IMG/VR virus record: IMGVR_UViG_3300035698_009252
Span: 64,001 to 128,000 of that record
Length of the DNA stretch: 64,000 nt
Reading direction: 5' to 3' (one strand)
Source: a virus
The stretch's first letter is position 1. Each line of letters begins with the position of its first letter. Positions 7,395-57,566 of the stretch are shown here, piece by piece. The translations under genes and the position numbers were made by a program. The notes below the pieces were generated by a model that saw nothing but the letters and a program-made list of their open reading frames with translations, did not search any database and was not told the origin of the DNA.

Positions 7395-8192
7395 CTACAT
7401 CCATTGGTTAGGCTTGAAGCCCCGCAATCTTCCCGTTAGGAATGGGATTCCGTGCGCTCCCCTTGAGCCACCCATTCCCCGAATCGCATCGTAATAGAAA
7501 GTCGTTGGAGGGGAAAGGTAATTGCCCGACTTGAATTTCTCATTGTCCATCGCCCTATCAGCCCGCGACTCGGCGTTCGACTTCAGGGTCTCAAACTGAC
7601 TGGCAATATCCCCACCGCCACCCTCAATATCGTTCGGCCCGATGGCAAAAAGCAGTCGGTACTTCCACAAATCGTAATCCAGCAGCAATTTCTCCATACA
7701 CTGGGCAAAAGCCAGGTCCGTCATCACGCCGTACCAGAACGTTGGGGCAGTGGCCACCGTATAGCCCGTGGGAGGCCCGTATGCACCGGCATTGATGATT
7801 TGAACGGCACACTTGAAGAACCCCTCAAGGACAGCCACCGGGAAGTAGTCAAACCAGTATGTGCAAAGGACTTCCTCCCTGGGACGGCCATCGCCTCCTA
7901 CCGTTACCGCCCCTGCCTGGAATGTTCCATAGGAGTACCCGACGTTCGTAACGCTTGCTGACGCCAGCTCCTGGCCCATCTTCCATACCCGCAACGGGGC
8001 ATCTTGGAGCCAATTGCCGAAGGTCACCTGCCACGTCAAGTTGTCATCCGGGCTCAAATTGCACGGTTCGTCGTGAATGTGAATCTGCCGAAATGACATC
8101 AGCCGAGGTGTCAAGTACTCATCAATCAGCACGTTGAACTGACTGCTGCTTGCTACCCCGGTTGGTATGTAAGTGCCTGCGAAGACCGCCAT
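7395..8192 (-). CDS. Putative neck / head completion protein
   Basis: 265 aa, first gene of the head-tail block, SD AGGAG. Confidence 0.5.
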   Translation of the reverse strand: MAVFAGTYIPTGVASSSQFNVLIDEYLTPRLMSFRQIHIHDEPCNLSPDDNLTWQVTFGNWLQDAPLRVWKMGQELASASVTNVGYSYGTFQAGAVTVGGDGRPREEVLCTYWFDYFPVAVLEGFFKCAVQIINAGAYGPPTGYTVATAPTFWYGVMTDLAFAQCMEKLLLDYDLWKYRLLFAIGPNDIEGGGGDIASQFETLKSNAESRADRAMDNEKFKSGNYLSPPTTFYYDAIRGMGGSRGAHGIPFLTGRLRGFKPNQWM

Positions 8193-8204
8193 GATTCCTA
8201 CTCC

Positions 8205-8615
8205 TTAGAACGCTCTTAGGTCCACCCTTCCCGATTCGGAACCGAAGGTATTTGAGAAAATCTTGTCATCATTGGGATGCCATCCGAACATCTTCAAGAA
8301 TTCCTGAAGGCCACGCGGCCCTTCGCCGTGGTAGCCAAAGCTGAACCCATTAAAAGTATGGGTTTCGGTGCTGCCATCCACCACCCACCTGAACCGTGCT
8401 TCCGTAATCCATTCAATGTGTTTGCTGTCGTAGGTAAAGGTCCCGTCGACCAAGAGATATCCAGCCTCCTTGATGCGCCGTGCATTTTCAAGGCTGTCGC
8501 GAGTCGCCCCTTCCCGCTTGAGCTGCAACATCTTCACGACCTGGAAGTCGCTTTTGAGAGCGACCAATTCCTTTGCCACCCCCAAAAGTTCTTTTGCCAC
8601 GGCTTGTCTGTTCAT
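8205..8615 (-). CDS. Leader-tagged protein (MNRQAVAKELLGVAKELVA), cargo with GFSFGYHGEGPRGL motif
   Basis: Shared leader. ATG coupled to the upstream TAA. Confidence 0.75.
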   Translation of the reverse strand: MNRQAVAKELLGVAKELVALKSDFQVVKMLQLKREGATRDSLENARRIKEAGYLLVDGTFTYDSKHIEWITEARFRWVVDGSTETHTFNGFSFGYHGEGPRGLQEFLKMFGWHPNDDKIFSNTFGSESGRVDLRAF

Positions 8616-8976: not shown

Positions 8977-9555
8977 TTAGAACATCTTCATAAGGGATTT
9001 GGCATAAACCAACGTCAAAGCCCCCATAACCATACCCTCTTCATTGTTGTCGTCCTCGGCATCTAAGAGCATCATCCGCCCTTTGCGACGCATCGAGTCC
9101 AGCTTACCCTTGTCCATCCCTGACAACTTTTTGTAGACGGCCTTTGAAATCCTGTCTATCTCGGAACTGCTAAGGGATACTTCCAAATCCATATCCTTAA
9201 GAACGGATTTCAGCTTCCCCGCCGACAATAGCCCGGCACTATCACTCCGGTGTGCCAACTCGTCCTTGAGCATCCGTTCGATTATCTGATTAACATCACG
9301 GTCAGTCGTGTTGGCACGAGAAGGCGTCTGGAGCGCCCCCCTCGTCCCAACTTGGATATCCCACCAAACCCTTGTCCCGAGACTCCTGTCCGCCGGATTC
9401 CTTACGACATAGACATGGACCCCATCAATCTCTCCGGCCCAAGCATACGCGCCAAGACCTATATCCATTTTCCGAAGTCCCCTCAGAAAGTTCGGAGCCG
9501 CCATCAGTTCCTTAGCAACCCTCACCAACTCTTTTGCTACTGCTTGTCGGTTCAT
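8977..9555 (-). CDS. Leader-tagged protein (MNRQAVAKELVRVAKELMA)
   Basis: Shared leader. Confidence 0.75.
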   Translation of the reverse strand: MNRQAVAKELVRVAKELMAAPNFLRGLRKMDIGLGAYAWAGEIDGVHVYVVRNPADRSLGTRVWWDIQVGTRGALQTPSRANTTDRDVNQIIERMLKDELAHRSDSAGLLSAGKLKSVLKDMDLEVSLSSSEIDRISKAVYKKLSGMDKGKLDSMRRKGRMMLLDAEDDNNEEGMVMGALTLVYAKSLMKMF

Positions 9556-9566
9556 TACGTCCCCCC

Positions 9567-9956
9567 TCAGCTCACATAGGCTGTCACGTCGTACCGGTCC
9601 AGCGGGTCATCGACACTACCGGCCCCCGCCGCAATTACGACTCCGTACAGCACGGTACGACGGCCCTTTTCATTATTGAAATACACTTCGAACTTCCACG
9701 TCTTGCTCTCGGGGACCCCGTCCCGGTTATTGGTATAGAAGTTGTCCGTCATCGCCCAGTCGAATGCGGCAGAATCCAGGGTCTTCCAAATCTGGTTAAC
9801 CCAGCGCCAATCGGTATCCCGGAGAAGCCCCTTTGGAGAGTTACGATGAATCACCTTGTTCACCTCGCGCCGGGCCTTGACATTCTTCATACCGGTGAGG
9901 GAGTTCTCATCTTCGGCCAGGTTCTCGGCGATTCTTATGATTCGTTTTAGGTCCAT
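9567..9956 (-). CDS. Short-leader protein (MDLKRIIRIAENLA)
   Basis: ATG coupled to the upstream TGA. Short leader variant. Confidence 0.7.
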   Translation of the reverse strand: MDLKRIIRIAENLAEDENSLTGMKNVKARREVNKVIHRNSPKGLLRDTDWRWVNQIWKTLDSAAFDWAMTDNFYTNNRDGVPESKTWKFEVYFNNEKGRRTVLYGVVIAAGAGSVDDPLDRYDVTAYVS

Positions 9957-10855
9957 CAGTGCCCCCATCCCAGTGCTGTTTGATATTTCGGCTTTCCGTC
10001 CCACAGGGTAGCGTGGGCATATGAATTGATACGAACCGAGTTGCCAGGACTCACGCGCTTTCTCATTTTCGGGCCAGTGAATTTGCCAGGAGCCGCTGAG
10101 ACATAAGCGGCACCTCTCTCCTCCTTGACAATCTTGGACCCTATTTCCCGGATAATCACGCTCTTTTCGCCCGCCTCGACGACCTCGTAGAAATCGATAT
10201 TGGTCTGGTCATAGCCCCACGAGGTGTACAAAATCGAGCCCACCACCAACCCGTGCTTGAATTCGTTCCGTTCCTTCTGGCGCTTCTGCTTGTCCTTGAG
10301 CCGCCCCTGGCGCTGCTCAATAGTCTCATTCACCTTCTTTTCAAACCGGTTCATATCCCGGAACCGGAAATGCCACAAGGGTTTCTGTGCCCGGCCCTGG
10401 AACGCAACACCGTAAAGATTGCCGTTCTGCTCATAGCTCCACGCCTCAATGTCCACGTCCGAGGGTATTTTAACTTCCTGGATGTTCTGATGGCGTGCCG
10501 GATTCGGACGATAGAACTCCCGCTTTTGAACCATCCGAAGTGCGGTCCTCTCTCTGGAGGAAGCAAAATACACCCTGCGAATGTCTTTCAGGAGCCTCCG
10601 AACCTTCTCCGGGGTCACGCTGTTCAGTCTCCCCGCGTCAATTGTGTAATCGTCACCGTCGAACAAGTCCCAGCGGCCACTGTCCTTCTCGATGAATACA
10701 CGCATCCCCTTCTGCCTGCGACTGATATACTCAAGGCCGTTACCCGCGTCCATGTTCGCCCATGCCCGGCTCACATCAAAATCGGGGTCACCACGACGAG
10801 CCATCAAGTCCTTCGCTACGGCCACCAACTCTTTTGCCACTGCTTTCACATTCAT
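9956..10855 (-). CDS. Leader-tagged multidomain protein (MNVKAVAKELVAVAKDLMA), C-terminal SWGYDQTNIDFY domain
   Basis: Shared leader and an internal ASSRERTA linker. Confidence 0.8.
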   Translation of the reverse strand: MNVKAVAKELVAVAKDLMARRGDPDFDVSRAWANMDAGNGLEYISRRQKGMRVFIEKDSGRWDLFDGDDYTIDAGRLNSVTPEKVRRLLKDIRRVYFASSRERTALRMVQKREFYRPNPARHQNIQEVKIPSDVDIEAWSYEQNGNLYGVAFQGRAQKPLWHFRFRDMNRFEKKVNETIEQRQGRLKDKQKRQKERNEFKHGLVVGSILYTSWGYDQTNIDFYEVVEAGEKSVIIREIGSKIVKEERGAAYVSAAPGKFTGPKMRKRVSPGNSVRINSYAHATLWDGKPKYQTALGWGH

Positions 10856-27159: not shown

Positions 27160-28965
27160 CTACGCATTTACGGGCGTCTGTGCCGCCCAACCCTTACGAA
27201 TCTGCTCCACAGTGGGCAGAGCAACCTCGTCCTTATCTTCTGTCAGGCCCTCGGTTTGCGCAAGCATTCCGAACACCTTCTCGTTGAACCCGGCAAGCAG
27301 GTTCACGTGGGTGCCCTCGTCCACAATCGTGTCACCGTACCCATTCAGGTTGATGCAGTGCAGCCAAGTCTCCTTGGCCCCCTTACCCGATGCCACGTAC
27401 TTTGCCCAGGTGTCACACACAGCCTTCTCGCTGTTCGGGCTCTCCGAACGGTAGCCACGCGCACCCGTCATGCTGGTGTCATCCCACGCCTGGAGGTCGG
27501 ACAGGAGGATAACCCGGTCAGGAGTCAGCCCCTTCTCGATGAGCCACAGCGGAATCTTGAAGGCGTTGGTGTTGTGACCGTTCACGCCGTCATCCCCAAT
27601 CTTGCGGGCCACATCGAGCACTGTATCAGTCTTCGTCCACATAACCTCGCGGATATCCGTTGCGAAAGCGCACACGTAGGAACGCTCACACCCCTTGGCC
27701 ACGATACCGGTTAGCACGTTTGCCACGTCGGCCACCGTCACCTCGGACTTGTCCGACAGCCTGTTGTTCGACATGGACCTCGAAGCGTCCACGAAGATTG
27801 CCGTGGTACCCGGCAGGGAAACCCCCTCCGCTGCGTAGTTTACGGCCAGCTCGACAGCGGCTTCCAGCTCACCCCGGTCGGCCTGGTCCACACCATCAAC
27901 CTGGAGGGCCTTCGATGCGGACAGGAACCGGAACGGGAGCTGCTTGGACCGCTGCACGGCCTGCTTGCTGGAGATATACGCGGACACCTTAGCGATATGC
28001 TCTTGCGAGACCTTCGCCTGAAGGATGTTCCGCAGGTTCCGCAGCATGGCCATGTAGCCGAGCAGCTTCTCGTCAACGAGGAACTCCCAAACACCCTTCT
28101 TGTCGTCCCCGAACTGGGAAAGCAGAACCTCCCAGTTCACCTTGGACTTGCGAGCAAGTTCCTTGGTGATGTTATCGAAAGCCGTCCGCTTGTTCATGGC
28201 CGCACGTGCCGCCACAATCGGGGCGTCCTTCTCATCCGGGATTGCGCCTGTGATGAAGTAATTCGCGATGGGCTTCGCCACCGGCCAGTCGGCCTTGCGC
28301 TTCACCCACCCAAACACGTCCTTCCACGTCGGGAAGTCCGGGCTGTCATACTTCACCAACCCACGCTCTCCAAAGCCCGAGATGGCGTCCCCCAGGCCGA
28401 AGTTCAGGCCATTGGCCAGAGACTTCATGCCGAAGAAGAACCGGTGAACGAGCAGACACGTCTTAACCTCGTCCGGCCTCTTGACAATGTGCGGGGCGTA
28501 CCGACGCACAAGCGACTTGGTCGCATCGAGCCTGGACGCCACAACAAGGAGCACCTGCGGCGTGAGCCGGATGTACATCTCATTGCGGAGCCAGTTGGCG
28601 ATAGAGAGAAGGTCCTCCGGGTTGTCCCCGGTCCCCACATCGATAGCCGTTGCCACGACCTCGCGAGCCACGTCGTTGAGTTCCTCGCAGGAAGCAAAGC
28701 CATTCAGCTTGCCATCCACGATTTCGAGACGCCGAGCGAGTTGCTCGAACTTGCCGCCCTGCACCCTCTTCGGGACAATGGCGTCACCGTTATAGAACTT
28801 CGGCTCGGCGAAAAACGCCCCACCGGTCATGGTGACCAGCTTGAGTGCCGGGTCCTTAATCTCGAATGCGACGCCGCCTGCGCGGTTTACGGTTGCATTC
28901 GGCTGCTTGCTCGGCTTACGAGCGTTCGCGGACTTGGTCCGCGCCATCTTCTGAAGAGTACTCAT
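27160..28965 (-). CDS. TROVE-domain (Ro60/Rsr/TEP1-like) RNA-binding protein with C-terminal vWA domain
   Basis: NRAGGVAF start, YMAMLRNLRNI, SKQLPFRFLSA, MIDAS DASRSM, ILLSDLQ. SD AGGAGGAGG before MSTLQK. Confidence 0.9.
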   Translation of the reverse strand: MSTLQKMARTKSANARKPSKQPNATVNRAGGVAFEIKDPALKLVTMTGGAFFAEPKFYNGDAIVPKRVQGGKFEQLARRLEIVDGKLNGFASCEELNDVAREVVATAIDVGTGDNPEDLLSIANWLRNEMYIRLTPQVLLVVASRLDATKSLVRRYAPHIVKRPDEVKTCLLVHRFFFGMKSLANGLNFGLGDAISGFGERGLVKYDSPDFPTWKDVFGWVKRKADWPVAKPIANYFITGAIPDEKDAPIVAARAAMNKRTAFDNITKELARKSKVNWEVLLSQFGDDKKGVWEFLVDEKLLGYMAMLRNLRNILQAKVSQEHIAKVSAYISSKQAVQRSKQLPFRFLSASKALQVDGVDQADRGELEAAVELAVNYAAEGVSLPGTTAIFVDASRSMSNNRLSDKSEVTVADVANVLTGIVAKGCERSYVCAFATDIREVMWTKTDTVLDVARKIGDDGVNGHNTNAFKIPLWLIEKGLTPDRVILLSDLQAWDDTSMTGARGYRSESPNSEKAVCDTWAKYVASGKGAKETWLHCINLNGYGDTIVDEGTHVNLLAGFNEKVFGMLAQTEGLTEDKDEVALPTVEQIRKGWAAQTPVNA

Positions 28966-29031
28966 AGCGTACCTCCTCCTTCTTTGAAGCGTGCCCAACT
29001 GTAGGGCACCAATTTACATTTCCTGACAAAC

Positions 29032-29069: not shown

Positions 29070-29146
<77 letters not shown>

Positions 29147-29435: not shown

Positions 29436-29495
29436 TTCTATTTTCTGTTTCAATTCAAAGAACAAACGACTGAAGCGTACCAGCCATCACAAACA

Positions 29496-29789
29496 CTATA
29501 CACCCGGACTCTCGTCCGGCGCAACAGAATTTTCATTTTTTTCATCTTCGTCTGGAATCCCTAATGTATTCCGCAGATATTCCTCGATTTCGTTAACGGT
29601 TGTCAACCGGCCAACATCTCCATCGGGTACAGGCTTTCCAAATTCTTCCTCGAATATCACCAACAATTCCACACAGTCCAGCTCATCGGCACCAAGGCTT
29701 GTTACGAGATGTGCATCATCTTCAATACCTTCAACCGGAATTCCCAGTTGCTCGGCCACGATAGACTTGATTCTGTCGCGAATGCTCAT
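29496..29789 (-). CDS. Acyl carrier protein-like protein lacking the phosphopantetheine Ser
   Basis: RIKSIVAEQLG...SLGADELDCVELL...EEEFG...TTV matches ACP except DSLD is DELD. Confidence 0.85.
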   Translation of the reverse strand: MSIRDRIKSIVAEQLGIPVEGIEDDAHLVTSLGADELDCVELLVIFEEEFGKPVPDGDVGRLTTVNEIEEYLRNTLGIPDEDEKNENSVAPDESPGV

Positions 29790-29796
29790 ACGACCT

Positions 29797-30027
29797 CCGT
29801 CATTCGGGTGAAGACACAATCCCTTACGGCCCCTTGTGTCTGAAAGTCCCCAAAAGGGGATGGGAAATCCAACCATGAGTTTAAGGGCTGCCTGTTCAGC
29901 ACTTACCGGGACTCTACCAACCCTTCCCGCCGATTCTCTCTACAGACTTTTTCAAACGTTGCGCGTACCTTCATCAGAGAATGTACCGTCATACTTGTCA
30001 TGTTCAGCGTAATCGGCCCGCTGACGG
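29797..30027 (-). ncRNA. Candidate structured RNA / leader upstream of the ACP-like gene
   Basis: Closing stem CCGTCA..CGGG/CCCG..TGACGG, hairpins GACACAA/TTGTGTC and TCCCC/GGGGA, no convincing ORF. Confidence 0.4.
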
Positions 30028-30035
30028 TTGAAAAA

Positions 30036-30211
30036 TGGTGGAGCGTACAGGAATTGAACCTGCGTCGGTTCCAGCCCTCCCGCCAACTACAGTCAAACCT
30101 GCACCGAGGAAAAAAATAAACCTCTGATTGGTACAGGACTCACTGCTTGGTACGAGACTTCGGAATCCCAAGTGACTTTCGTCACCGGCCTTTCCTCTCA
30201 GCCAACGCCCC
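30036..30211 (-). ncRNA. tRNA-Ala-like RNA with ~115-nt insert replacing the anticodon arm
   Basis: Acceptor GGGGCGT/ACGCTCC with G3:U70, A73, encoded CCA, D-arm-like TGGCTGAGAGGAAAGGC, T arm GCAGG-TTCAATT-CCTGT. Confidence 0.7.
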
Positions 30212-30285
30212 TTTCTCAGACTCTTGGCCAGCCTTTCGGCTGTTACCAGTTGACACCGCGTGGAGGTGGTCTGACATCGTCAACC

Positions 30286-30677
30286 TGGACGTGGGGAGAA
30301 TCGAACTCCCGTCCTGGACAGGCTCACCGTAAACCTCTACATGCTTATCCAGCTACTTTCTTTTGCCGCTGGCGGGCCGCACAACAGTCCTTCCCAGAGC
30401 ACCCCGTAATAAACGGTTCTGTTGTAGTACTCATTGGATGACATAGCCCGGCCACCCGCCGGGGTTCTACCTCTGTCGTTGCCGGACATCCCTTAGAGGT
30501 GTAGGGGAGCCGACACCGGGGCTGTTAAGCCGCCAGAGCGCGAGCGCCCTGGACTCCGGGGAATTGAAGAACGTTGCCGTTTACTTCAGTGTTGGAAGGC
30601 TTTTTAGGAGGCCAACCTTACCAACCTCCGCATGCAGTTAACGACTTGCATCTGCCAGTCGAAACCTTGTCACGCCC
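30286..30677 (-). ncRNA. ssrA: tmRNA, tag (A)GNVLQFPGVQGARALAA* at 30525-30578
   Basis: 5' GGGCGTG-ACAAGGTTTCGAC, 3' GGAC-GGGAG-TTCGATT-CTCCC-CACGTCC-A, G3:U70, tag ORF ending ALAA. CCA not encoded. Confidence 0.92.
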
Positions 30678-30733
30678 ATATTTTCAAAGAACGACCGTAG
30701 CATTCACCGTCTACCGCTACGAGTCAACATCAA

Positions 30734-30742
30734 ATTATACTC
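30734..30742 (-). promoter_or_regulatory. Sigma70-like -10 (GAGTATAAT) upstream of tmRNA
   Basis: Same G(A/T)GTATAAT element at 32467, 36325 and 42680, with a variant at 42235. Confidence 0.45.
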
Positions 30743-30778
30743 TATCCATTGCTCCAGGGAGCATCAATTCTGAAAAAA

Positions 30779-31232
30779 TTACTAGCAGGCCGGGTTTTCG
30801 CCGACACACTTACCTACCCCACCCTCCACGTAGAGCCATAACTTCAACGGGATAGGGTCATAGGCTTAAAGCTCAGTCCTAATCGTTTGCCCCACCTCCA
30901 ACCGGGAGGCTACGGGTTCTCTATTCCACCCAAGGAAGGCCATTTACATCTGCAAGACAGGCTTGCTCCTCTCTCGCGTCCGGGCTCTCACCGGCACCCC
31001 TGGACTTTGCAACCTACTTCTTTCGGTTCGGCGACCCGTTCGGATTCTAACCTACTAAGGGATTTTTGCGCACGGGGACTATTGGTGCGCGGGGTGTGTT
31101 ACGGCTCCAGCAACATCCAAGGTGTTCCGGTACCGGGTAGTCCGCAAGAAGGGGACAAGACCACATTCTCGCGCTTGCCTGGTGTGTCCGGGCTTGGATT
31201 CGCCTTCACCAGCGCCACACCGCTGCCAGTAA
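30779..31232 (-). ncRNA. Large (~450 nt) structured RNA of unknown class with tRNA-like ends
   Basis: 10-bp terminal stem TTACTGGCAG/CTGCTAGTAA, preceded at the 3' end by a 5-bp/7-nt-loop T-arm mimic GTCGG-CGAAAAC-CCGGC. No minus-strand ORF. Confidence 0.6.
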
Positions 31233-31247
31233 AATATCAATGAACAA

Positions 31248-31409
31248 ATCGAGCGACAGGGTTTTCACCTGCACGACGGGTATTTCATCTTTGCTTCAAG
31301 ACTGCGTTTCTTGATTTGGCTTTCGCTCGCCTCAAGGCATTCAGTCAACACCCCGTCTATTTCACCGCATCGCTGCTGGCAGTTTAGCGTCTAATTCCGC
31401 CACGCTCAA
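31248..31409 (-). ncRNA. tRNA-like RNA (~160 nt) with Leu-type D arm and large insert
   Basis: TTGAGCG/CGCTCGA acceptor, TGGCGGAATTAGACGC D arm, GCAGG-TGAAAAC-CCTGT T-arm variant. Confidence 0.6.
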
Positions 31410-32058
31410 AAACCAATGTTGCCTGCCCCGCCCTCACGTCCTCTTACTCTCGGACAGAGGCTTCAGCTTCGCCACGCACCGAGGTCCGGTAATCCGTGAC
31501 AGTAACCCGTCAGACAACAAATCAAAATCAAAGGGCAGGCTTGTTCGCCACAGTCCCAGAGCGGGCCGTTTAACTCCCGCTTTTCTTCCGGCATTGTTCC
31601 TTCTTCTGCAAGCAGAAGTTCACCGGGCCAATTGCAGACTAGCTGCTGGCCGATGCCGAAGCTGAGGCTGTACCTGCCATGAGGCACCGCCGAAGACGTG
31701 GCTGGTTTACGCATCCCAGCCGTAGCCCTGTTTTGCCTCCGCAAATGCGGAGATGGCTTCCCGGATTGTCTCCGGCATGGGGACGACGGTTTCCCGTCAA
31801 TCCTCCACCACCCGGATTTTTGATAAGGTTCCGGGGAACCGCATCGGAAAGGCCGCAACAGCACCCGAAGGCTGCCGTACGACGGTTCCCAACGAAAACG
31901 CCTTTGGGCCAGTCGCACCAGAGATTTGTGCCACACTGTTTTTTTTCTTGGCTCCCGGCGATAGTTCTTACCAACCGGCCCAAAGGTAAATCTTTCAAAG
32001 AACTGGCCTTGCGGCCTCGTCATCCCATTCATTGCGCAACTGGTTCGGGATTCTGAAC

Positions 32059-36279: not shown

Positions 36280-36370
36280 CTCCTCTCATATTTCCAGCAC
36301 ACAGTGCTGATGTTTCGTAGAAACATTATACACCGGGAAGATGACCCCGTGCGCACGTCTCTACTAAAAT

Positions 36371-38871: not shown

Positions 38872-41391
38872 TTACGGAGCGCAATTGTCACATTTCCCAC
38901 ACGGCCCCGACAACGACACGTCCCCAAAATGTTCGCAAACATAGGCATACCGGCAATCCCTCGTCCGGTAGAACCGCGTCAAAGCATTCAACTTCTCCAT
39001 CCGGTCCTTCCTTGAGCCATCAATCTGTACAACATCAAAGGTGTCGTCTTTATCAAGCCACACCTTGTACTTCCCACGGCCAAGTGTTTTGACAAGGCCC
39101 TTCTGCTTCAATGCCGAAATACAGGCCCCGACATTATGTACCCTGGACAATTGCCCCATGACCTTCTGAGTCATGTGTATCTCGGCAAAGTTGGCCCCAT
39201 TCGCCTCCTTGAGAGCTGTGGACTTGAGCCACTTCCAGAACCCCTCTACATCCTTGCCACTGGGATTGGTCATGTCTATAAGGAAAGTTTGGGTTCGGTA
39301 ATCATCTTCAAAATCACAAACCGTTAGACAAAAAGAATCCTTACCATCGCGCCCGGCACGCCCTACCGCCTGGAACCAGTCTTCAATGCTCTGAGACAGG
39401 CCAACGTGCACAACAAAACGAACATCAGGCCGGTCTATACCCATACCAAATGCGGAAGTCGCAACAATAATTCCACCATCCTTAGACCATTGAGTCTGGG
39501 TCTCAGCCCGTTCTGTTTGAAGAAGGCCCGCGTGATAGAACATAGCCGGAATGCCCCGTTTGCACAGGTAATCGCAAACCGCTTCCGCTTCCTTGCGCGT
39601 AGCGGCATACACAATTCCCGTCTTGAAGTCTTCAGCAACAGCGAGGACATACTCATACCGCTCGGCCCCACGCGCCTCCACCATCGCAAATTGCAAATTG
39701 GGCCGATAAACACTCTGAACGAACCTCTTGGCCTCCTCGATATGAAGCGAGCGACAAATGTCTTCCCGGACCTTTTCCGTAGCCGTAGCCGTCAAAGCAA
39801 CCACTTGCCGGGGATTCAGGCGTTCGATAACTCCGCCCAGCTCAGCATAAGCCGGTCGGAAGTCGTGCCCCCACCTGCTAATACAGTTGTGAACTAAAGA
39901 GCCATTTGCGAAGAAGTTATGACTTCCTTCAACTTCGATGTCGTAAAGCCGCACCCCAACCGGATTCTTTCCAAGGCATTCCCCGGTTGGGAGAGTGCCT
40001 CCTCGTTCGACACGCGAAACACTTTCCACCCGAGCATACGAAGAAACGACTCCTTCCGCTGGTCTGCATCCCGCACCTTCATCGCCTTGTGTGACGGGCC
40101 GTCCACTTCTATTGTGACTTTCTCCAATGGCCACGACAAGTCCAACTTGTAGTGTGTCGGATAGCCACTCCCGTCCCGACAATGTCCTGTTTTTACTATA
40201 TGGTTCAGAGAAAGTCCTCCCGCGACTGCAAGAGCAGCCTCCGGTCCCGTCGCACCTCTCCCGTTCCCTCCCCGATTCGTCTTGAACCTGTCCTGGCCCT
40301 TCGACGCCTTCGACACAGACGCCCTGACCGATTCCCTCTTCATTGGGTTGTCCCGAGTCATCCTCTCCGACGCCTCCGACCTCTTCGTCTGCGAACGCTG
40401 GCCACACAGAGTCGAACAGTGCAGAGTCCTGTACCCCGGCTTCGTGTGGAAGCTCTTCCCGCACGAAAGACATATCTTCTCTACAGTCGGAACACTTCTT
40501 GTTTTTGCCGACCCTGCCCTTTGACATGCCTGTGAACAATACCTGCTCGGAGGCCGCCCCTTTCTGAGTCGCATCTCCCGAACCTTCCCGCATTCCTCGC
40601 ACACAACTATCTGCTTTGATGATTTCATACCCAGACTGTAACTTGTCCACAGGAACTAAGCCAGTGTTTTTTACGAAAAACTCTTGCCCCCCATCGCAGT
40701 ACCCGTCCCGCCCATTTATGCGAACCTTCCACAGGTCCAGACCACGATGAAGGAACAGTCTCGCTACCTTGCCGACGACCGTATTCCCGTCATACTTCGA
40801 GATAACCTCGTCACCCACCCTGATAGAATCAATCCGGCGCTCACCGGAAGGCGTCAGAACCATCGTATCCCCGATAAAACAGTGAGCCTCATCCACGGCA
40901 AAGATGTCTACCTTCAGTTTCTCCATGGCCCGGTTAAACTCGGAGTTTCCAAAGCGCTCCGGGGACACATACAAGGCCCGCACGCCGCCCGACGAGACCT
41001 CTGCCAAGGCCAATTTCGCATCCCGCATCGGCACAGAGGAGTTGATTAGGACGGCATTGACACCAAGACCCTGGAGTTTGTCCACCTGGTCCTTCATCAA
41101 AGCAATCAACGGGCTTGCAACTACCGTCAAGGTGTCAGACAGAATCGATGGGAGTTGGTAAACCAGGGATTTCCCTGAACCCGTGGGGAATACACACAAC
41201 ACACCTTTTTCGCCCTCTATGGCCTCTGTAATGGCTTCGCGTTGCCCCTCCCGGAACTTTGTATGCCCGAATACCTTCAGGGCATCGTCAAGGCTCATTT
41301 GGGCCACCTTGGGCTTTGATATGACCGCTACCTGTGGTTGGTTACTCTTGGCGGCCCGGAGCGCCCGAACTCTTTCCAGCATGCTACTCAT
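38872..41391 (-). CDS. recQ: RecQ-family DNA helicase interrupted by an intein
   Basis: FREGQ, PTGSGKSLVYQLP, SPLIALMKDQV, VDEAH|CISRWGHDFRP, ALTATA, AFGMGIDRPDVR, GRAGRDG, CGKCDNC. Confidence 0.95.
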   Translation of the reverse strand: MSSMLERVRALRAAKSNQPQVAVISKPKVAQMSLDDALKVFGHTKFREGQREAITEAIEGEKGVLCVFPTGSGKSLVYQLPSILSDTLTVVASPLIALMKDQVDKLQGLGVNAVLINSSVPMRDAKLALAEVSSGGVRALYVSPERFGNSEFNRAMEKLKVDIFAVDEAHCFIGDTMVLTPSGERRIDSIRVGDEVISKYDGNTVVGKVARLFLHRGLDLWKVRINGRDGYCDGGQEFFVKNTGLVPVDKLQSGYEIIKADSCVRGMREGSGDATQKGAASEQVLFTGMSKGRVGKNKKCSDCREDMSFVREELPHEAGVQDSALFDSVWPAFADEEVGGVGEDDSGQPNEEGIGQGVCVEGVEGPGQVQDESGRERERCDGTGGCSCSRGRTFSEPYSKNRTLSGREWLSDTLQVGLVVAIGESHNRSGRPVTQGDEGAGCRPAEGVVSSYARVESVSRVERGGTLPTGECLGKNPVGVRLYDIEVEGSHNFFANGSLVHNCISRWGHDFRPAYAELGGVIERLNPRQVVALTATATEKVREDICRSLHIEEAKRFVQSVYRPNLQFAMVEARGAERYEYVLAVAEDFKTGIVYAATRKEAEAVCDYLCKRGIPAMFYHAGLLQTERAETQTQWSKDGGIIVATSAFGMGIDRPDVRFVVHVGLSQSIEDWFQAVGRAGRDGKDSFCLTVCDFEDDYRTQTFLIDMTNPSGKDVEGFWKWLKSTALKEANGANFAEIHMTQKVMGQLSRVHNVGACISALKQKGLVKTLGRGKYKVWLDKDDTFDVVQIDGSRKDRMEKLNALTRFYRTRDCRYAYVCEHFGDVSLSGPCGKCDNCAP
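39886..40881 (-). mobile_element. Intein (332 aa) inserted in RecQ motif II (DEAH/C)
   Basis: Starts CFIGDTMVLTP and ends LYDIEVEGSHNFFANGSLVHN, followed by extein Cys. Confidence 0.92.
39894..40628 (-). CDS. Zn-finger + DUF559/Vsr-like endonuclease encoded in an alternative frame inside the intein
   Basis: CEECG..YCSQAC, CLSCG..HCSTLC, YKLDLSW...IEVDGPSH...DQRKESFLRMLGWKVFRV. Confidence 0.85.
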   Translation of the reverse strand: MKSSKQIVVCEECGKVREMRLRKGRPPSRYCSQACQRAGSAKTRSVPTVEKICLSCGKSFHTKPGYRTLHCSTLCGQRSQTKRSEASERMTRDNPMKRESVRASVSKASKGQDRFKTNRGGNGRGATGPEAALAVAGGLSLNHIVKTGHCRDGSGYPTHYKLDLSWPLEKVTIEVDGPSHKAMKVRDADQRKESFLRMLGWKVFRVSNEEALSQPGNALERIRLGCGFTTSKLKEVITSSQMAL

Positions 41392-42229: not shown

Positions 42230-42368
42230 GCCCTACTATACACTTGGAAGCCGGGGACAAGACAAAAAAAGAGAGGGTTCTCAGTCAACCCGAGGTTCCT
42301 TGGCGGCGGCGAGGGCATAATCGAGTCGGCTCTGCTCGTTTAACGCATGCTCCAGTTCATCACCCTTA

Positions 42369-45525: not shown

Positions 45526-46595
45526 TCCTCAACTCGCCTCCCGGTTACGGCCCAATCCTCAAGCACATCGTGCTCCCATAGGACAAGGCAATAAATGCCT
45601 GCCCCATTATACGCTTCAACCAGCTCCTGAGCATGAATCTCTTCAGGAATCCCCGTAACTTCCTCCGAATGCCACCAACTCCCCAGCAATTCCACCACCT
45701 TCACCGCCCGCCAATACCTGGGGAATCGCTGCTTCCCCGCCGATAACACCTGGGCCTTTGCCGCAATCCCCGGCGAAAACACCATGAAATCAGGATTCAG
45801 GTCGTGAAACACCCGGCCCAGCTTCCTTACGCCCACCTTTGTCCTGATGAACCGTGCCCCATACCCACTATACACCACAGTCTCCGGCGTATGCTGGTCG
45901 AAGAACCACTCCAAGTGTGTAGGACGGACCCCGTTGGCCTCCCGGTTGCGGATAAAGACCTCTTCATCCTTCATGGGGTGGTCCACGCCATACCGACGCA
46001 TACTCGTTTGCACAAGCCTCTTCTTTACCTCCGGGTCGGCAAAGGGATTGGCATGGCCATGCCTACTCAAATGAGTAGCCTCACGCTTCTTCTGGATAGC
46101 CTCGAAGTCTTGCTTGGCCTTCCACTTATCGGCAACGGATGATGCGATAAGCTGGAGTCCACGGTTCTTTTCAAGGACTATCTTGTCCTCAGACCACCCA
46201 TGAACGCGCCGGAGATGCTTACCAAGCCGCAGGAGGGCTACACCACACTCCGGGCACGCCACGTAGTCCACGCCCTTCTTATAGGCTTCAGGGTGAGCCT
46301 GCACGCACTCGGCACGATGCTTCGTCGCTGTCTCGGGCTGATACCACTCAGAACAGACATGGCACTGTTTTGCACCACGCTTTTGGGACATAGGCTTATA
46401 GCCGCCCTTGGCCCGCTTAGAAGCCGATTGCCTATCGATAGCCCGTCTGACGACCAATTGTGCTTCAGGAAACCTGTCCCGATACCCCGAAGCGTCAAGT
46501 CCGTGAAGCTTGATATGGCAAGATAAAACCGGGGACCTGTAACCACACACCATACACACAAGATGGTCAACGCCCTCTTCTTTGTACCCCGGCAT
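45510..46595 (-). CDS. Zn-finger + PD-(D/E)XK (Vsr-like) putative homing endonuclease
   Basis: CMVCG..HIKLH, CPECG..HLRRVH, YGVDHPMK repeat, NPDF...VVELLGSWWH...LVLWEHD. Confidence 0.75.
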   Translation of the reverse strand: MPGYKEEGVDHLVCMVCGYRSPVLSCHIKLHGLDASGYRDRFPEAQLVVRRAIDRQSASKRAKGGYKPMSQKRGAKQCHVCSEWYQPETATKHRAECVQAHPEAYKKGVDYVACPECGVALLRLGKHLRRVHGWSEDKIVLEKNRGLQLIASSVADKWKAKQDFEAIQKKREATHLSRHGHANPFADPEVKKRLVQTSMRRYGVDHPMKDEEVFIRNREANGVRPTHLEWFFDQHTPETVVYSGYGARFIRTKVGVRKLGRVFHDLNPDFMVFSPGIAAKAQVLSAGKQRFPRYWRAVKVVELLGSWWHSEEVTGIPEEIHAQELVEAYNGAGIYCLVLWEHDVLEDWAVTGRRVEEWLKL

Positions 46596-55556: not shown

Positions 55557-55819
55557 TCACCTCCTTCAAATTGCTGCATGGCTTTTACGATGTCGGCCAA
55601 ATACGGCGCAACACCTTCGTCTAACGATTCCCTGGCGGAATCCAGTGCCGCCTTCTGAGGAACACTCTCTGCCTTGATTTTCGGCAAATTCTCGTTGATG
55701 ATTTGTACGCAGCGAATCATCATATCGATGGACTGGTCGACCATCTCCAAGGGCTCATCGCTCTCTTCTCCTTGTGCGACCCTGTTTGTCATTTTGGCTA
55801 TCCTCGTTTGGTCCATCAC
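55553..55819 (-). CDS. Short-leader protein (MDQTRIAKMTNRVA)
   Basis: Leader variant. Confidence 0.6.
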   Translation of the reverse strand: MMDQTRIAKMTNRVAQGEESDEPLEMVDQSIDMMIRCVQIINENLPKIKAESVPQKAALDSARESLDEGVAPYLADIVKAMQQFEGGE

Positions 55820-57291
55820 GCATACTCCTCTTTGAGAAGGCGGATGGCATCCTGCCTGGACAACTCCTTGCCCAACCCCGCCAATTCGTCCATCTTGTCC
55901 CGCAGAAATTGAATGGCTTTGCCCACTTCCGGTCCCTGACCTAACCCCAAAATCTGCTGTACCTCGTGCCCATTCAACGGTGGTTTCTCCGATATCGGGA
56001 TGTCCTGAACGTCCTCAATCATTTCGCGAAGCTTCGGAATTTCGTTCCGAGGCGGCAGATTCCCCAACAAATCAGCTTCGGCCAAGTCCAGCACGGCGTC
56101 AATCAACTCCTCACCCACATTGCGAATGAACTTCCGCAAAGCCTTCGGCCCCACCCTGTCGTCACGGGTCATGGCGTGTGGACGCATGTGCATCTCCACC
56201 ATGCGCCTGACAGACTTGATGTCCTTCTTCTCAAACTTCAACCGCCGCATGATGGCTTCGGCAATTTCCCCACCAACCTTTTCATGGCCAATGAACCGGA
56301 CCAGGCCGTCAAGAATCTCCCTGGACTTCGGCTTGCCCACGTCATGTAACAGGGCACCTAGCTGGTTTAGAACGCCTGGCTGGGCACTCCGCAACACCAG
56401 CATGGTGTGTTTGAAGACATCGCCCTCCTGGTGAGCACCACGGGTGTATTCATGTTCCACGCCCTGCATTGCCTCTATTTCCGGGAAGACGTACTTCAAC
56501 AACCCTAATACCTTCATCAACCGGATAGCCTGGGCCAGCTTGCCCACATCCATCACTTTGATAAGTTCATCTCGGATACGTTCCCCTGAGACAATCTTGA
56601 TACGGCCCGCATTCGCCCGCACAATCTTGATAACCGATATAGGAACCTTCCACCCATACTTAGCCTGGAAGCGAACCAGGCGAATCATCCTGAGAGGGTC
56701 TTGCCGGAGAATCTCGGCAAAGTCTACGCCCGGATGGCCCCGCAAGAGTCCCTTCTTGATGTCGGCCACGCTGGTCCCGGTCAAATCCTTCAGCTCGCCG
56801 GTTGTCAAATCCTTCAGGACCATGTTGACGGTAAAATCTCGGCGCTCGATATCTTCTTTCAGGGTGCCAGGCTCAGTTAGCCGCTGCCGGGAGTCCTCAT
56901 CAGGAAATGATTCCTTCTGAGCATCGGCAATCTCAATCTCCGCACCTGCGGTTGCGTACTCTTCGCCATCGAACTCTATATCGTCCTTGAAGGTGATAGC
57001 CCATATGGGGTACTTCCCTTTCTGGACTGGGCGGCTTGTCTCCCTCGTGAACTCGCGATGGAGATAGGTAGTGAGCTTCTTCGCTCCACCCTTCATCTCG
57101 ATGACAACGTCCAGGTCCTTGGACGGCAATCCCATGATTTCGTCACGAACGTATCCGCCCACCGCGAAGGTCTTATTGGCAAAGGGGGTGCCCCGCAGTA
57201 ACGCCTTCATCAGACGTTCCACTTCTTTCTCGGCGGATGCCGCCAAGATTTCGCGAGCTACCTTGAGCACTTCTTTGACCAATCCGTTCAT
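55816..57291 (-). CDS. cca: CCA-adding tRNA nucleotidyltransferase (class II) with HD domain, leader-tagged
   Basis: VGGYVRD..DLD, EDIERRDFTVN, DPLRMIR, ERIRDEL, HT..LLHDVGKP. Start MNGLVKEVLKVAREILAA. Confidence 0.88.
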   Translation of the reverse strand: MNGLVKEVLKVAREILAASAEKEVERLMKALLRGTPFANKTFAVGGYVRDEIMGLPSKDLDVVIEMKGGAKKLTTYLHREFTRETSRPVQKGKYPIWAITFKDDIEFDGEEYATAGAEIEIADAQKESFPDEDSRQRLTEPGTLKEDIERRDFTVNMVLKDLTTGELKDLTGTSVADIKKGLLRGHPGVDFAEILRQDPLRMIRLVRFQAKYGWKVPISVIKIVRANAGRIKIVSGERIRDELIKVMDVGKLAQAIRLMKVLGLLKYVFPEIEAMQGVEHEYTRGAHQEGDVFKHTMLVLRSAQPGVLNQLGALLHDVGKPKSREILDGLVRFIGHEKVGGEIAEAIMRRLKFEKKDIKSVRRMVEMHMRPHAMTRDDRVGPKALRKFIRNVGEELIDAVLDLAEADLLGNLPPRNEIPKLREMIEDVQDIPISEKPPLNGHEVQQILGLGQGPEVGKAIQFLRDKMDELAGLGKELSRQDAIRLLKEEYA

Positions 57292-57293
57292 AA

Positions 57294-57566
57294 TTACGGC
57301 AGAACATCTGCTGTTCTCTCCAGCTCCCAAGCCTCTTTCTCAAGGCTTGCCGCCACCTGCCCGCACAGTGATTCAAGATGTTTGTATGCCGACACCGCGC
57401 TATGGCAATCAGACGCCAACTCGTTAAGCATCAAGGAGTCGCCCGCCTCGTTCTTCGCGTCACGATACGTATTGAACCCCGCCGCCTTCATCACCCTTGC
57501 ACGCTCACGCTCCCGAGCAAGTACCGTGTCGAATGCCTTCCTGAACTGTCTATCAAACGTCGCCAT
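57294..57566 (-). CDS. Hypothetical protein
   Basis: 90 aa, SD GAGGTG. Confidence 0.6.
   Translation of the reverse strand: MATFDRQFRKAFDTVLARERERARVMKAAGFNTYRDAKNEAGDSLMLNELASDCHSAVSAYKHLESLCGQVAASLEKEAWELERTADVLP

Follow-up and report, generated by a model that had tools for sequence, protein, structure and literature searches.

An acyl carrier protein homologue with glutamate at the phosphopantetheine site in a phage RNA gene array, and its counterparts in other viruses

Introduction

Acyl carrier protein (ACP) is a central hub of bacterial metabolism, and a phage-borne copy that cannot be modified is a plausible tool for stopping or re-routing host lipid synthesis; it might likewise strike any other AcpP-dependent process. 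A short gene in an IMG/VR virus record raises this question directly, in that it encodes an ACP homologue with glutamate where AcpP bears its phosphopantetheine on serine. What would a phage do with such a protein, and is the replacement an oddity of one genome? The stretch of DNA that we analyzed (the window) comprises 64,000 nucleotides, bases 64001-128000 of a 139.6-kb record estimated to be 43% complete, and its genes lie almost all on the minus strand. The record is a viral contig that carries a portal protein, other phage-type families, a tRNA nucleotidyltransferase, and a Ro60-like RNA-binding protein. The answer to the second question is clear: replacement of the carrier serine by Glu or Asp has occurred repeatedly in viral ACPs and is kept by selection. 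The window case contributes chiefly a series of Ser, Glu, and Asp alleles at one positional gene and a C-terminal tail that turns out to be a nucleotide element.

A divergent AcpP homologue that lacks the carrier serine

The gene and its defining codon are placed as follows.

29496-29789, minus strand: ACP-like coding sequence, 97 amino acids (stop codon 29496-29498, ATG 29787-29789)
29682-29684, minus strand: GAG codon of Glu36, aligned with the phosphopantetheine-bearing Ser36 of AcpP; contig L165 has the same codon
29794-29798, minus strand: GGAGG ribosome-binding site, 4 nt 5' of the ATG

The protein reads L32-G-A-D-E36-L-D38, with LGADELD replacing LGADSLD, as the initial annotation had described. 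That annotation also judged a read error unlikely from the codon, and GAG is indeed two changes away from the TCN serine codons and three from AGY. An independent contig in ENA (L165), 99.8% identical to the window over 938 nt, encodes the identical ACP-like protein, Glu36 allele included, which excludes a read error at this position. We rejected a 126-residue form extended to 29876, given that five of six orthologues start at the aligned Met and that each of the orthologue starts is preceded by a purine-rich GGAGG-like box; the ACP-like protein of contig L012 has four additional N-terminal residues.

A range of comparisons places the protein squarely among ACPs. It matches Pfam PP-binding (PF00550) with an E value of 2.8e-12 and 47.2 bits against a cut-off of 20.8, and it matches PHROG 5934, "acyl carrier protein"; the NCBIfam acyl-carrier models all match below their own cut-offs (TIGR00517, 61.6 versus 70.45). 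Its nearest solved relatives are housekeeping AcpPs, with the Aquifex ACP 2ehs the best (E = 1.6e-17) and E. coli AcpP also among them. In an AlphaFold model, block-mean pLDDT is 77 to 91 at residues 1-80 and about 50 (low confidence) further on; the AcpP-type four-helix fold spans residues 1-76, and Foldseek superposes the model on E. coli AcpP chains with an RMSD of 0.8 to 1.0 Å and a target-normalized TM score of 0.90 to 0.94. AcpP docks on its client proteins via acidic residues of helix II, and this recognition helix is present in the window protein (D35, D38, E41, and E47-E49).

The window protein thus has the fold of bacterial type II AcpP (PF00550; TIGR00517), especially of its apo form, and is 40-50% identical to cellular AcpPs, with helix I, the LGAD loop, and the acidic helix II in common. 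It differs from them in a disordered C-terminal extension of about 20 residues, in being encoded by a phage among RNA genes rather than in a fab operon, and, above all, in Glu36, which makes phosphopantetheine attachment impossible: with no hydroxyl at this residue, the protein can be neither modified nor acylated. Offering nothing to a phosphopantetheinyl transferase, it would never exist in a holo form. The earlier description of an ACP-fold homologue closed to phosphopantetheinylation is borne out by the family and structural matches together with the residue itself. The window protein, an AcpP homologue that has diverged and lacks the chemical feature by which its family is defined, does not merit annotation as an acyl carrier, although source annotations name several of the viral proteins without the serine "acyl carrier protein." Our literature searches turned up no description of phage ACPs without the serine.

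Positional orthologues form a Ser, Glu, and Asp series

The gene was initially noted as embedded in an array of RNA genes, and the tmRNA, the tRNA, and a ribozyme-like element that scores below its cut-off do surround it.

30285-30677, minus strand: tmRNA, phage type, CCA not encoded, tag GNVLQFPGVQGARALAA
30215-30285, minus strand: HDV-like ribozyme, directly 3' of the tmRNA, 37.8 bits versus an Rfam cut-off of 44
30005-30042, minus strand: hairpin CAGCG-GGCCGAYNA-CGCTG, invariant in all orthologous loci
29869-29954, minus strand: structured leader 5' of the start codon (at a distance of about 80-165 nt), with 77-86% nucleotide identity across all six orthologous lineages
29070-29146, minus strand: tRNA-Met (CAU) with a U1-U72 mismatch
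27160-28998, minus strand: Ro60/TROVE-vWA protein, downstream; it also follows tRNA-Met in L012 and is absent at that place in L003

An exhaustive profile-free search returned more than 10,000 ACP homologues, only a handful of which align over the full 97 residues. After a second search, the orthologue group stands at seven proteins (P0001, P0069, P0040, P0154, P0026, P0041, and P0088, plus the copy in L165). Wherever the DNA reaches far enough, the gene order is tmRNA, conserved leader, ACP-like gene, a gap of 100-370 nt, and tRNA-Met (CAU), with the HDV-like ribozyme accompanying the tmRNA in two cases, and this common order establishes the seven proteins as positional orthologues. Searches for further members in IMG/VR (by protein and by alignment), in metagenome contigs, and with flanking nucleotide motifs in viral and GTDB contigs returned generic ACPs or chance matches.

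The residue at the carrier site varies within this group. Glu occurs in the window and in L007, Asp in L010/L011 and in L013, and Ser in L008/L009, L012, and L003, so that the acidic residue is not fixed among the window protein's own relatives (E, E, D, D, S, S, S). The initial annotation had asked whether Glu is conserved among phage homologues: it is shared with L007 and matched by another acidic residue in L010/L011 and L013, but three of the six orthologous lineages have Ser. The Ser codons of the orthologues are TCN, from which Glu or Asp lies two substitutions away, via Ala. The window and L007-type lineages have both kept Glu even though they are only 47% identical. A protein tree of the cores, meant to count the Ser-to-acid events within the group, had long branches and no resolution. 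The residues D35, L37, E41, E47, E49, F50, D56, D58, L62, and Y71 are invariant in all seven proteins, and they include acidic positions of helix II at which AcpP docks on its clients. The group therefore offers a natural allelic series, with Ser, Glu, and Asp at one positional gene, in which the acidic residue can be put to the test.

Codon-level comparisons support a protein under constraint. Across the orthologue cores (codons 1-76), pairwise identity at the first, second, and third codon positions is 0.59, 0.68, and 0.36, the pattern of a translated, constrained protein; Nei-Gojobori omega between two Asp alleles (L010 versus L013) is 0.16; and the open reading frame, the ribosome-binding site, and the ACP core are intact in all eight loci. 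By these measures of substitution, the ACP-like gene is shown to be maintained by purifying selection. A singleton allele under relaxed selection, the case that would have told against the initial annotation, is not what these loci contain: the allele recurs, and both omega and the codon positions bear the mark of constraint. The gene nonetheless changes quickly. The AAA ATPase that flanks it in L003 is 85% identical to that of the window and the Ro60 protein of L012 is 86% identical, and in the same phage pairs the ACP-like proteins are 41-50% identical versus 60-86% for flanking genes, which indicates unusually fast evolution of the ACP-like gene.

Replacement of the carrier serine across viral ACPs

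To look beyond the orthologue group, we recovered 72 ACP loci from IMG/VR regardless of the residue at the carrier site; 69 have Ser, three (L002, L017, and L077) have Glu, and none has anything else. Glu forms are accordingly a minority, about 4% in this unbiased sample, and Ser had been lost in 0 of about 155 of the nearest short homologues of the query outside its orthologue group. A scan of IMG/VR DNA for the pattern G-A-D-E-[L/F]-D-x-[V/I/M]-E found 49 sites, 27 of them ACP-like by HMM; clustering at 60% identity divides these 27 into 12 groups. When the Glu codon of the pattern is exchanged for a TCN Ser codon, it occurs in at least 120 stretches, nearly all ACP-like. All told, 14 or more viral ACP lineages besides this group, distinct from one another in sequence, carry the Ser-to-Glu swap. 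These proteins are AcpP-like with Glu at the Ser36 position and a retained helix II, like the window protein, but they form separate clusters at 60% identity and have only general ACP similarity in common with it. Comparison of these lineages thus shows the same Ser-to-Glu/Asp replacement to have arisen in many unrelated viral ACP lineages.

Two of these families illustrate the point from different sides. In a cluster of 14 loci with the motif GADEFD, omega ranges from 0.04 to 0.39 (mostly 0.1 to 0.2), dS reaches 0.96, and Glu is invariant. The protein of L017 is 57-68% identical to cellular AcpPs, all of which have Ser and among which those with a named source are Omnitrophota. None of the cultured-phage relatives of the L017, L002, and GADEFD families exceeds 52% identity.

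The same pattern was sought in GTDB genomes, where 6 of 121 sites were clearly ACP-like among the matches listed. When scaled to chance matches to the pattern, Glu-ACP sites show an enrichment of about 23-fold in viral over prokaryotic DNA (27:22 versus 6:115), a rough figure in that both denominators are imperfect and the GTDB counts come from the matches listed.

Across the orthologues and the surveyed IMG/VR loci, the residue that replaces a lost Ser is always Glu or Asp and never Ala, Thr, or Gly. That an acidic residue two steps away was reached repeatedly, rather than the residues one step away, argues for selection of the acidic residue; what has been selected, this pattern argues, would be a negative charge or a helix cap at position 36.

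The genomic surroundings of Glu-ACPs differ from lineage to lineage. A gene consistently adjacent to them in independent lineages was sought and none was found; the neighbors that recur are an endolysin, a dCMP deaminase, and a DHH phosphoesterase. One 232-kb viral contig (L002) carries two ACP-like genes 1.2 kb apart (8001-8231 and 9466-9738), one with Glu (GADELD) and the other with Ser (GMDSLS), adjoining genes for dCMP deaminase and thymidylate synthase. A cellular Glu-ACP, also with GADELD and one of the six GTDB sites, lies at 4353-4589 of L368, a Candidatus Babeliales MAG with a reduced genome. A fabD-like acyltransferase gene is found about 500 nt upstream of it, separated by one short open reading frame, and the viral ACPs without the serine may have a counterpart here in a cellular genome.

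The conserved 3' end of the gene reads best as promoter-like DNA

The C-terminal extension of the orthologues ends in …VAPxxSPGV, and the DNA that encodes it holds several elements.

29488-29545, minus strand: nucleotide-conserved element that takes in the final ~17 codons with the stop codon and extends over the first bases of the 3'UTR
29495-29503, minus strand: GTGTATAGT, the part of the element that matches the promoter-like motif
29495-29503, 36325-36333, 42235-42243, and 45867-45875, all minus strand: copies of GTGTATART, a strand-specific promoter-like motif
29465-29488, minus strand: hairpin followed by a T-rich run, just past the stop codon

We considered the tail as a peptide docking motif and rejected it. 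Third-position identity is 0.65 in the tail versus 0.36 in the core, the conservation of nucleotides thus includes third positions and runs past the stop codon into the 3'UTR, and L003 retains the nucleotides despite a frame shifted by one base and a different peptide. None of the other proteins of the record shares the tail. A tie between its final PGV and the FPGV of the tmRNA tag in the window and L003 was discarded as well, given that the L013 tag (AETVSMLAAA) is without FPGV and that the tail is constrained as nucleotides.

The conserved element is built of an A-rich stretch (GAAAAAGATGAAAAT) and GTTGC, which a variable spacer of ~20 nt separates from GGTGTATAGTGTTTGTG. GTGTATART occurs four times in the window against 0.16 expected, in every case on the coding (minus) strand, and nine times on the coding strand of the 139-kb record, where several copies lie 10-25 nt before a ribosome-binding site and ATG. 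Conserved third positions, the run into the 3'UTR, the shifted frame of L003, and the recurrence of GTGTATART together favor reading the tail as translated promoter-like DNA that would serve the downstream RNA genes. The hairpin and T-rich run stand at the same place in L010/L013 and in L003, with a different stem sequence; the structure looks like a terminator, or like the 5' hairpin of the next transcript.

The frame of L003 deserves a comment of its own. At 10255-10300 (in protein P0088, present on about 10 contigs), an A-run differs by one base and displaces the ACP frame so that the annotated tail differs, and the -1 frame still gives …KSVVSGGGSGV and a stop, as in the other orthologues. 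Either a recent frameshift or slippage of the ribosome on GAAAAAG could be the cause.

What an ACP without its serine might do

The explanation that we favor, tentatively and at a little short of an even chance, is that the window protein is a cofactor-free mimic of host AcpP that works by binding proteins, most likely as a decoy for the clients of host AcpP. Such a mimic would act through helix II, and the carboxylate of Glu or Asp could supply the negative charge or the helix cap that phospho-Ser36 gives to holo-ACP. Most likely, it would compete with the AcpP of the host for one or several AcpP-binding proteins, as a permanently "apo-like" decoy; orthologues with Ser could do the same job whether the host modifies them or not. 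Keating, Carey, and Cronan reportedly found in 1995 that excess apo-ACP is toxic in E. coli via inhibition of the glycerol-3-phosphate acyltransferase PlsB. In the 139-kb record (43% complete), we found no RelA/SpoT, phosphopantetheinyl transferase (ACPS), ketosynthase, acyl-AMP ligase (AMP-binding), PlsB/C-type acyltransferase, or SmpB, and host enzymes could serve in place of phage genes for fatty acid synthesis and phosphopantetheinylation.

As to targets, the initial annotation named SpoT, MukB, acyltransferases, or a defense protein, and nothing in our analysis points to them. It also regarded Glu36 as mimicking the phosphorylated serine. Mimicry of the holo-ACP phosphodiester would agree with an acidic residue 36, but a plainer alternative explains such a residue too: Ser, Asp, and Glu are all favored at the N terminus of a helix, and residue 36 presumably caps helix II.

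Several observations weigh against a mimic. The main caution is the Ser kept in three orthologous lineages. Glu is not obligatory for the function of the family, and either the group's function tolerates a modifiable Ser or it differs between lineages. The ancestral and perhaps the current function of the group could be true acyl carriage, with the Glu and Asp lineages doing something different or less. Fast evolution of the protein is also what relaxed constraint looks like, and conservation in helix II may reflect fold stability in part rather than docking.

An alternative that we consider rather unlikely, and yet the most serious, is that the protein is not a decoy but serves a phage or host complex as obligate subunit or adaptor, joining that complex without any prosthetic group. 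The evidence of fold, helix II, and selection speaks for an adaptor just as it does for a mimic. Mitochondrial ACP works with LYR-motif proteins and AcpP sits on MukB, and the structural search with the window protein returned, among other matches, solved complexes in which AcpP accompanies NFS1-ISD11 or MukBEF. The replacement residue in the Plasmodium mitochondrial ACP is hydrophobic (Phe), not acidic. The loss of Ser itself has its nearest functional precedent in that protein: in the mitochondrial ACP of Plasmodium falciparum the serine is replaced, and Isd11 is bound independently of phosphopantetheine (PMC8547962). Both proteins lack a modifiable Ser and the Plasmodium one is retained for protein binding, but it is eukaryotic and organellar with a known partner, whereas the window protein is phage encoded. 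The Glu-ACP and Ser-ACP that L002 encodes within 1.5 kb suggest a division of labor that would suit an adaptor. Against it stand the lack of an LYR-like or other conserved partner gene beside Glu-ACPs in independent lineages and the fast evolution of the sequence, which would be unusual if the protein were an obligate part of a conserved complex.

Might the gene instead be what is left of a captured acpP, relaxed or in decay? The ancestral phage ACP would then have been a true carrier, as the orthologues with Ser would still be; Glu and Asp would mark loss-of-function alleles, and the reading frame would survive because regulatory DNA overlaps it. Ser in three of six lineages, divergence far beyond that of the neighboring genes, the nucleotide constraint that the promoter-like element imposes on the 3' end, and a record without phosphopantetheinyl transferase or fatty acid synthesis genes would all fit. 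A remnant would hardly, however, keep its reading frame, ribosome-binding site, and ACP core through eight loci, with third codon positions near saturation and first and second positions conserved, nor show an omega of 0.16 after the substitution to Asp, nor hold Glu in two lineages that share less than half of their residues. Purifying selection is clear in other viral Glu-ACP families, and neutral loss predicts the one-step residues Ala, Pro, Thr, or Leu, none of which was seen. We regard decay as improbable.

There is also a small chance that the protein is an acidic nucleic-acid mimic or an anti-defense protein to which ACP ancestry is incidental; it would act on a protein that binds RNA or DNA, possibly as part of an RNA-maintenance module with tmRNA, Ro60, and tRNA. 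It is very acidic and fast evolving, its place between tmRNA and tRNA-Met is kept in all orthologous loci that reach far enough, and Ro60 lies directly downstream in the window and in L012. The phages that share this layout are, however, close relatives, with flanking proteins up to 85-86% identical, so that the shared synteny is what descent predicts and gives no evidence of a functional tie to the RNA genes. L003 is without Ro60 at that place, the Glu-ACPs of other viruses have neither RNA genes nor Ro60 beside them (a check for association with Ro60/vWA proteins found none), and a nucleic-acid mimic leaves the retention of exactly the AcpP docking residues unexplained.

Highly improbable, finally, is a working carboxylate, by which viral Glu-ACPs would be carriers with a novel chemistry instead of inert decoys and would hold a substrate covalently on residue 36 through an amide or anhydride, by analogy with LysW, a small zinc-ribbon-type protein of a different fold that bears its substrate on a Glu carboxylate through an ATP-grasp ligase; a cognate ligase of that type was sought and no RimK or ATP-grasp_4 match occurs in the (incomplete) 139-kb record, and if such a carrier did exist, the Ser/Glu/Asp variation among the orthologues would mark a switch of linkage type.

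Further features of the RNA array

The HDV-like ribozyme of the window begins with the base that follows the discriminator of the tmRNA. A comparable element in L008 (165-236) and L009 (175-246) scores 39.7 bits with the F. prausnitzii HDV model, below the cut-off of 44. The orthologous tmRNAs of L003 and L013 encode CCA and are without the ribozyme, and the window phage encodes a CCA-adding enzyme (55816-57330). "Theta" ribozymes have been described beside phage tRNAs, in an account that does not mention tmRNA (PMC10879173).

The leader of the ACP-like gene has equivalents at 9912-9975 of L003, 451-511 of L007, 488-530 of L008, 153-215 of L010, 94-173 of L012, and 718-780 of L013. It spans about 75 nt with the core AGAGAGAATCGGCGGGAAGG…TCCCGGTAAGTG-hairpin-CAGCCCNTAAACTC, resembles a three-way junction, and has covarying pairs in one hairpin; it matches no Rfam family, and it may be a cis-regulatory RNA. 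The invariant CAGCG…CGCTG hairpin lies a few bases past the CCA end of the upstream tRNA-like RNA in the window and past that of the tmRNA in L003, L010, and L013, and it may be a processing signal.

The tRNA-Met has only two G-C pairs beside its anticodon loop and is initiator-like yet atypical. Immediately beyond the 3' end of the tRNA, contig L165 ceases to align with the window (L165 positions 939-1094), and this break suggests a boundary of recombination. Upstream of the tmRNA, about 1.4 kb (30678-32058) is without a convincing open reading frame and gives no Rfam match at E ≤ 1; L003 aligns to window positions 30286-31245 with 68% nucleotide identity, and the region 30678-32058 may hold further RNAs. 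Elsewhere on the minus strand, a RecQ-type helicase gene (38872-41391; DEAD, Helicase_C, and RecQ_Zn_bind) is interrupted by Hint/intein-splicing matches and probably contains an intein.
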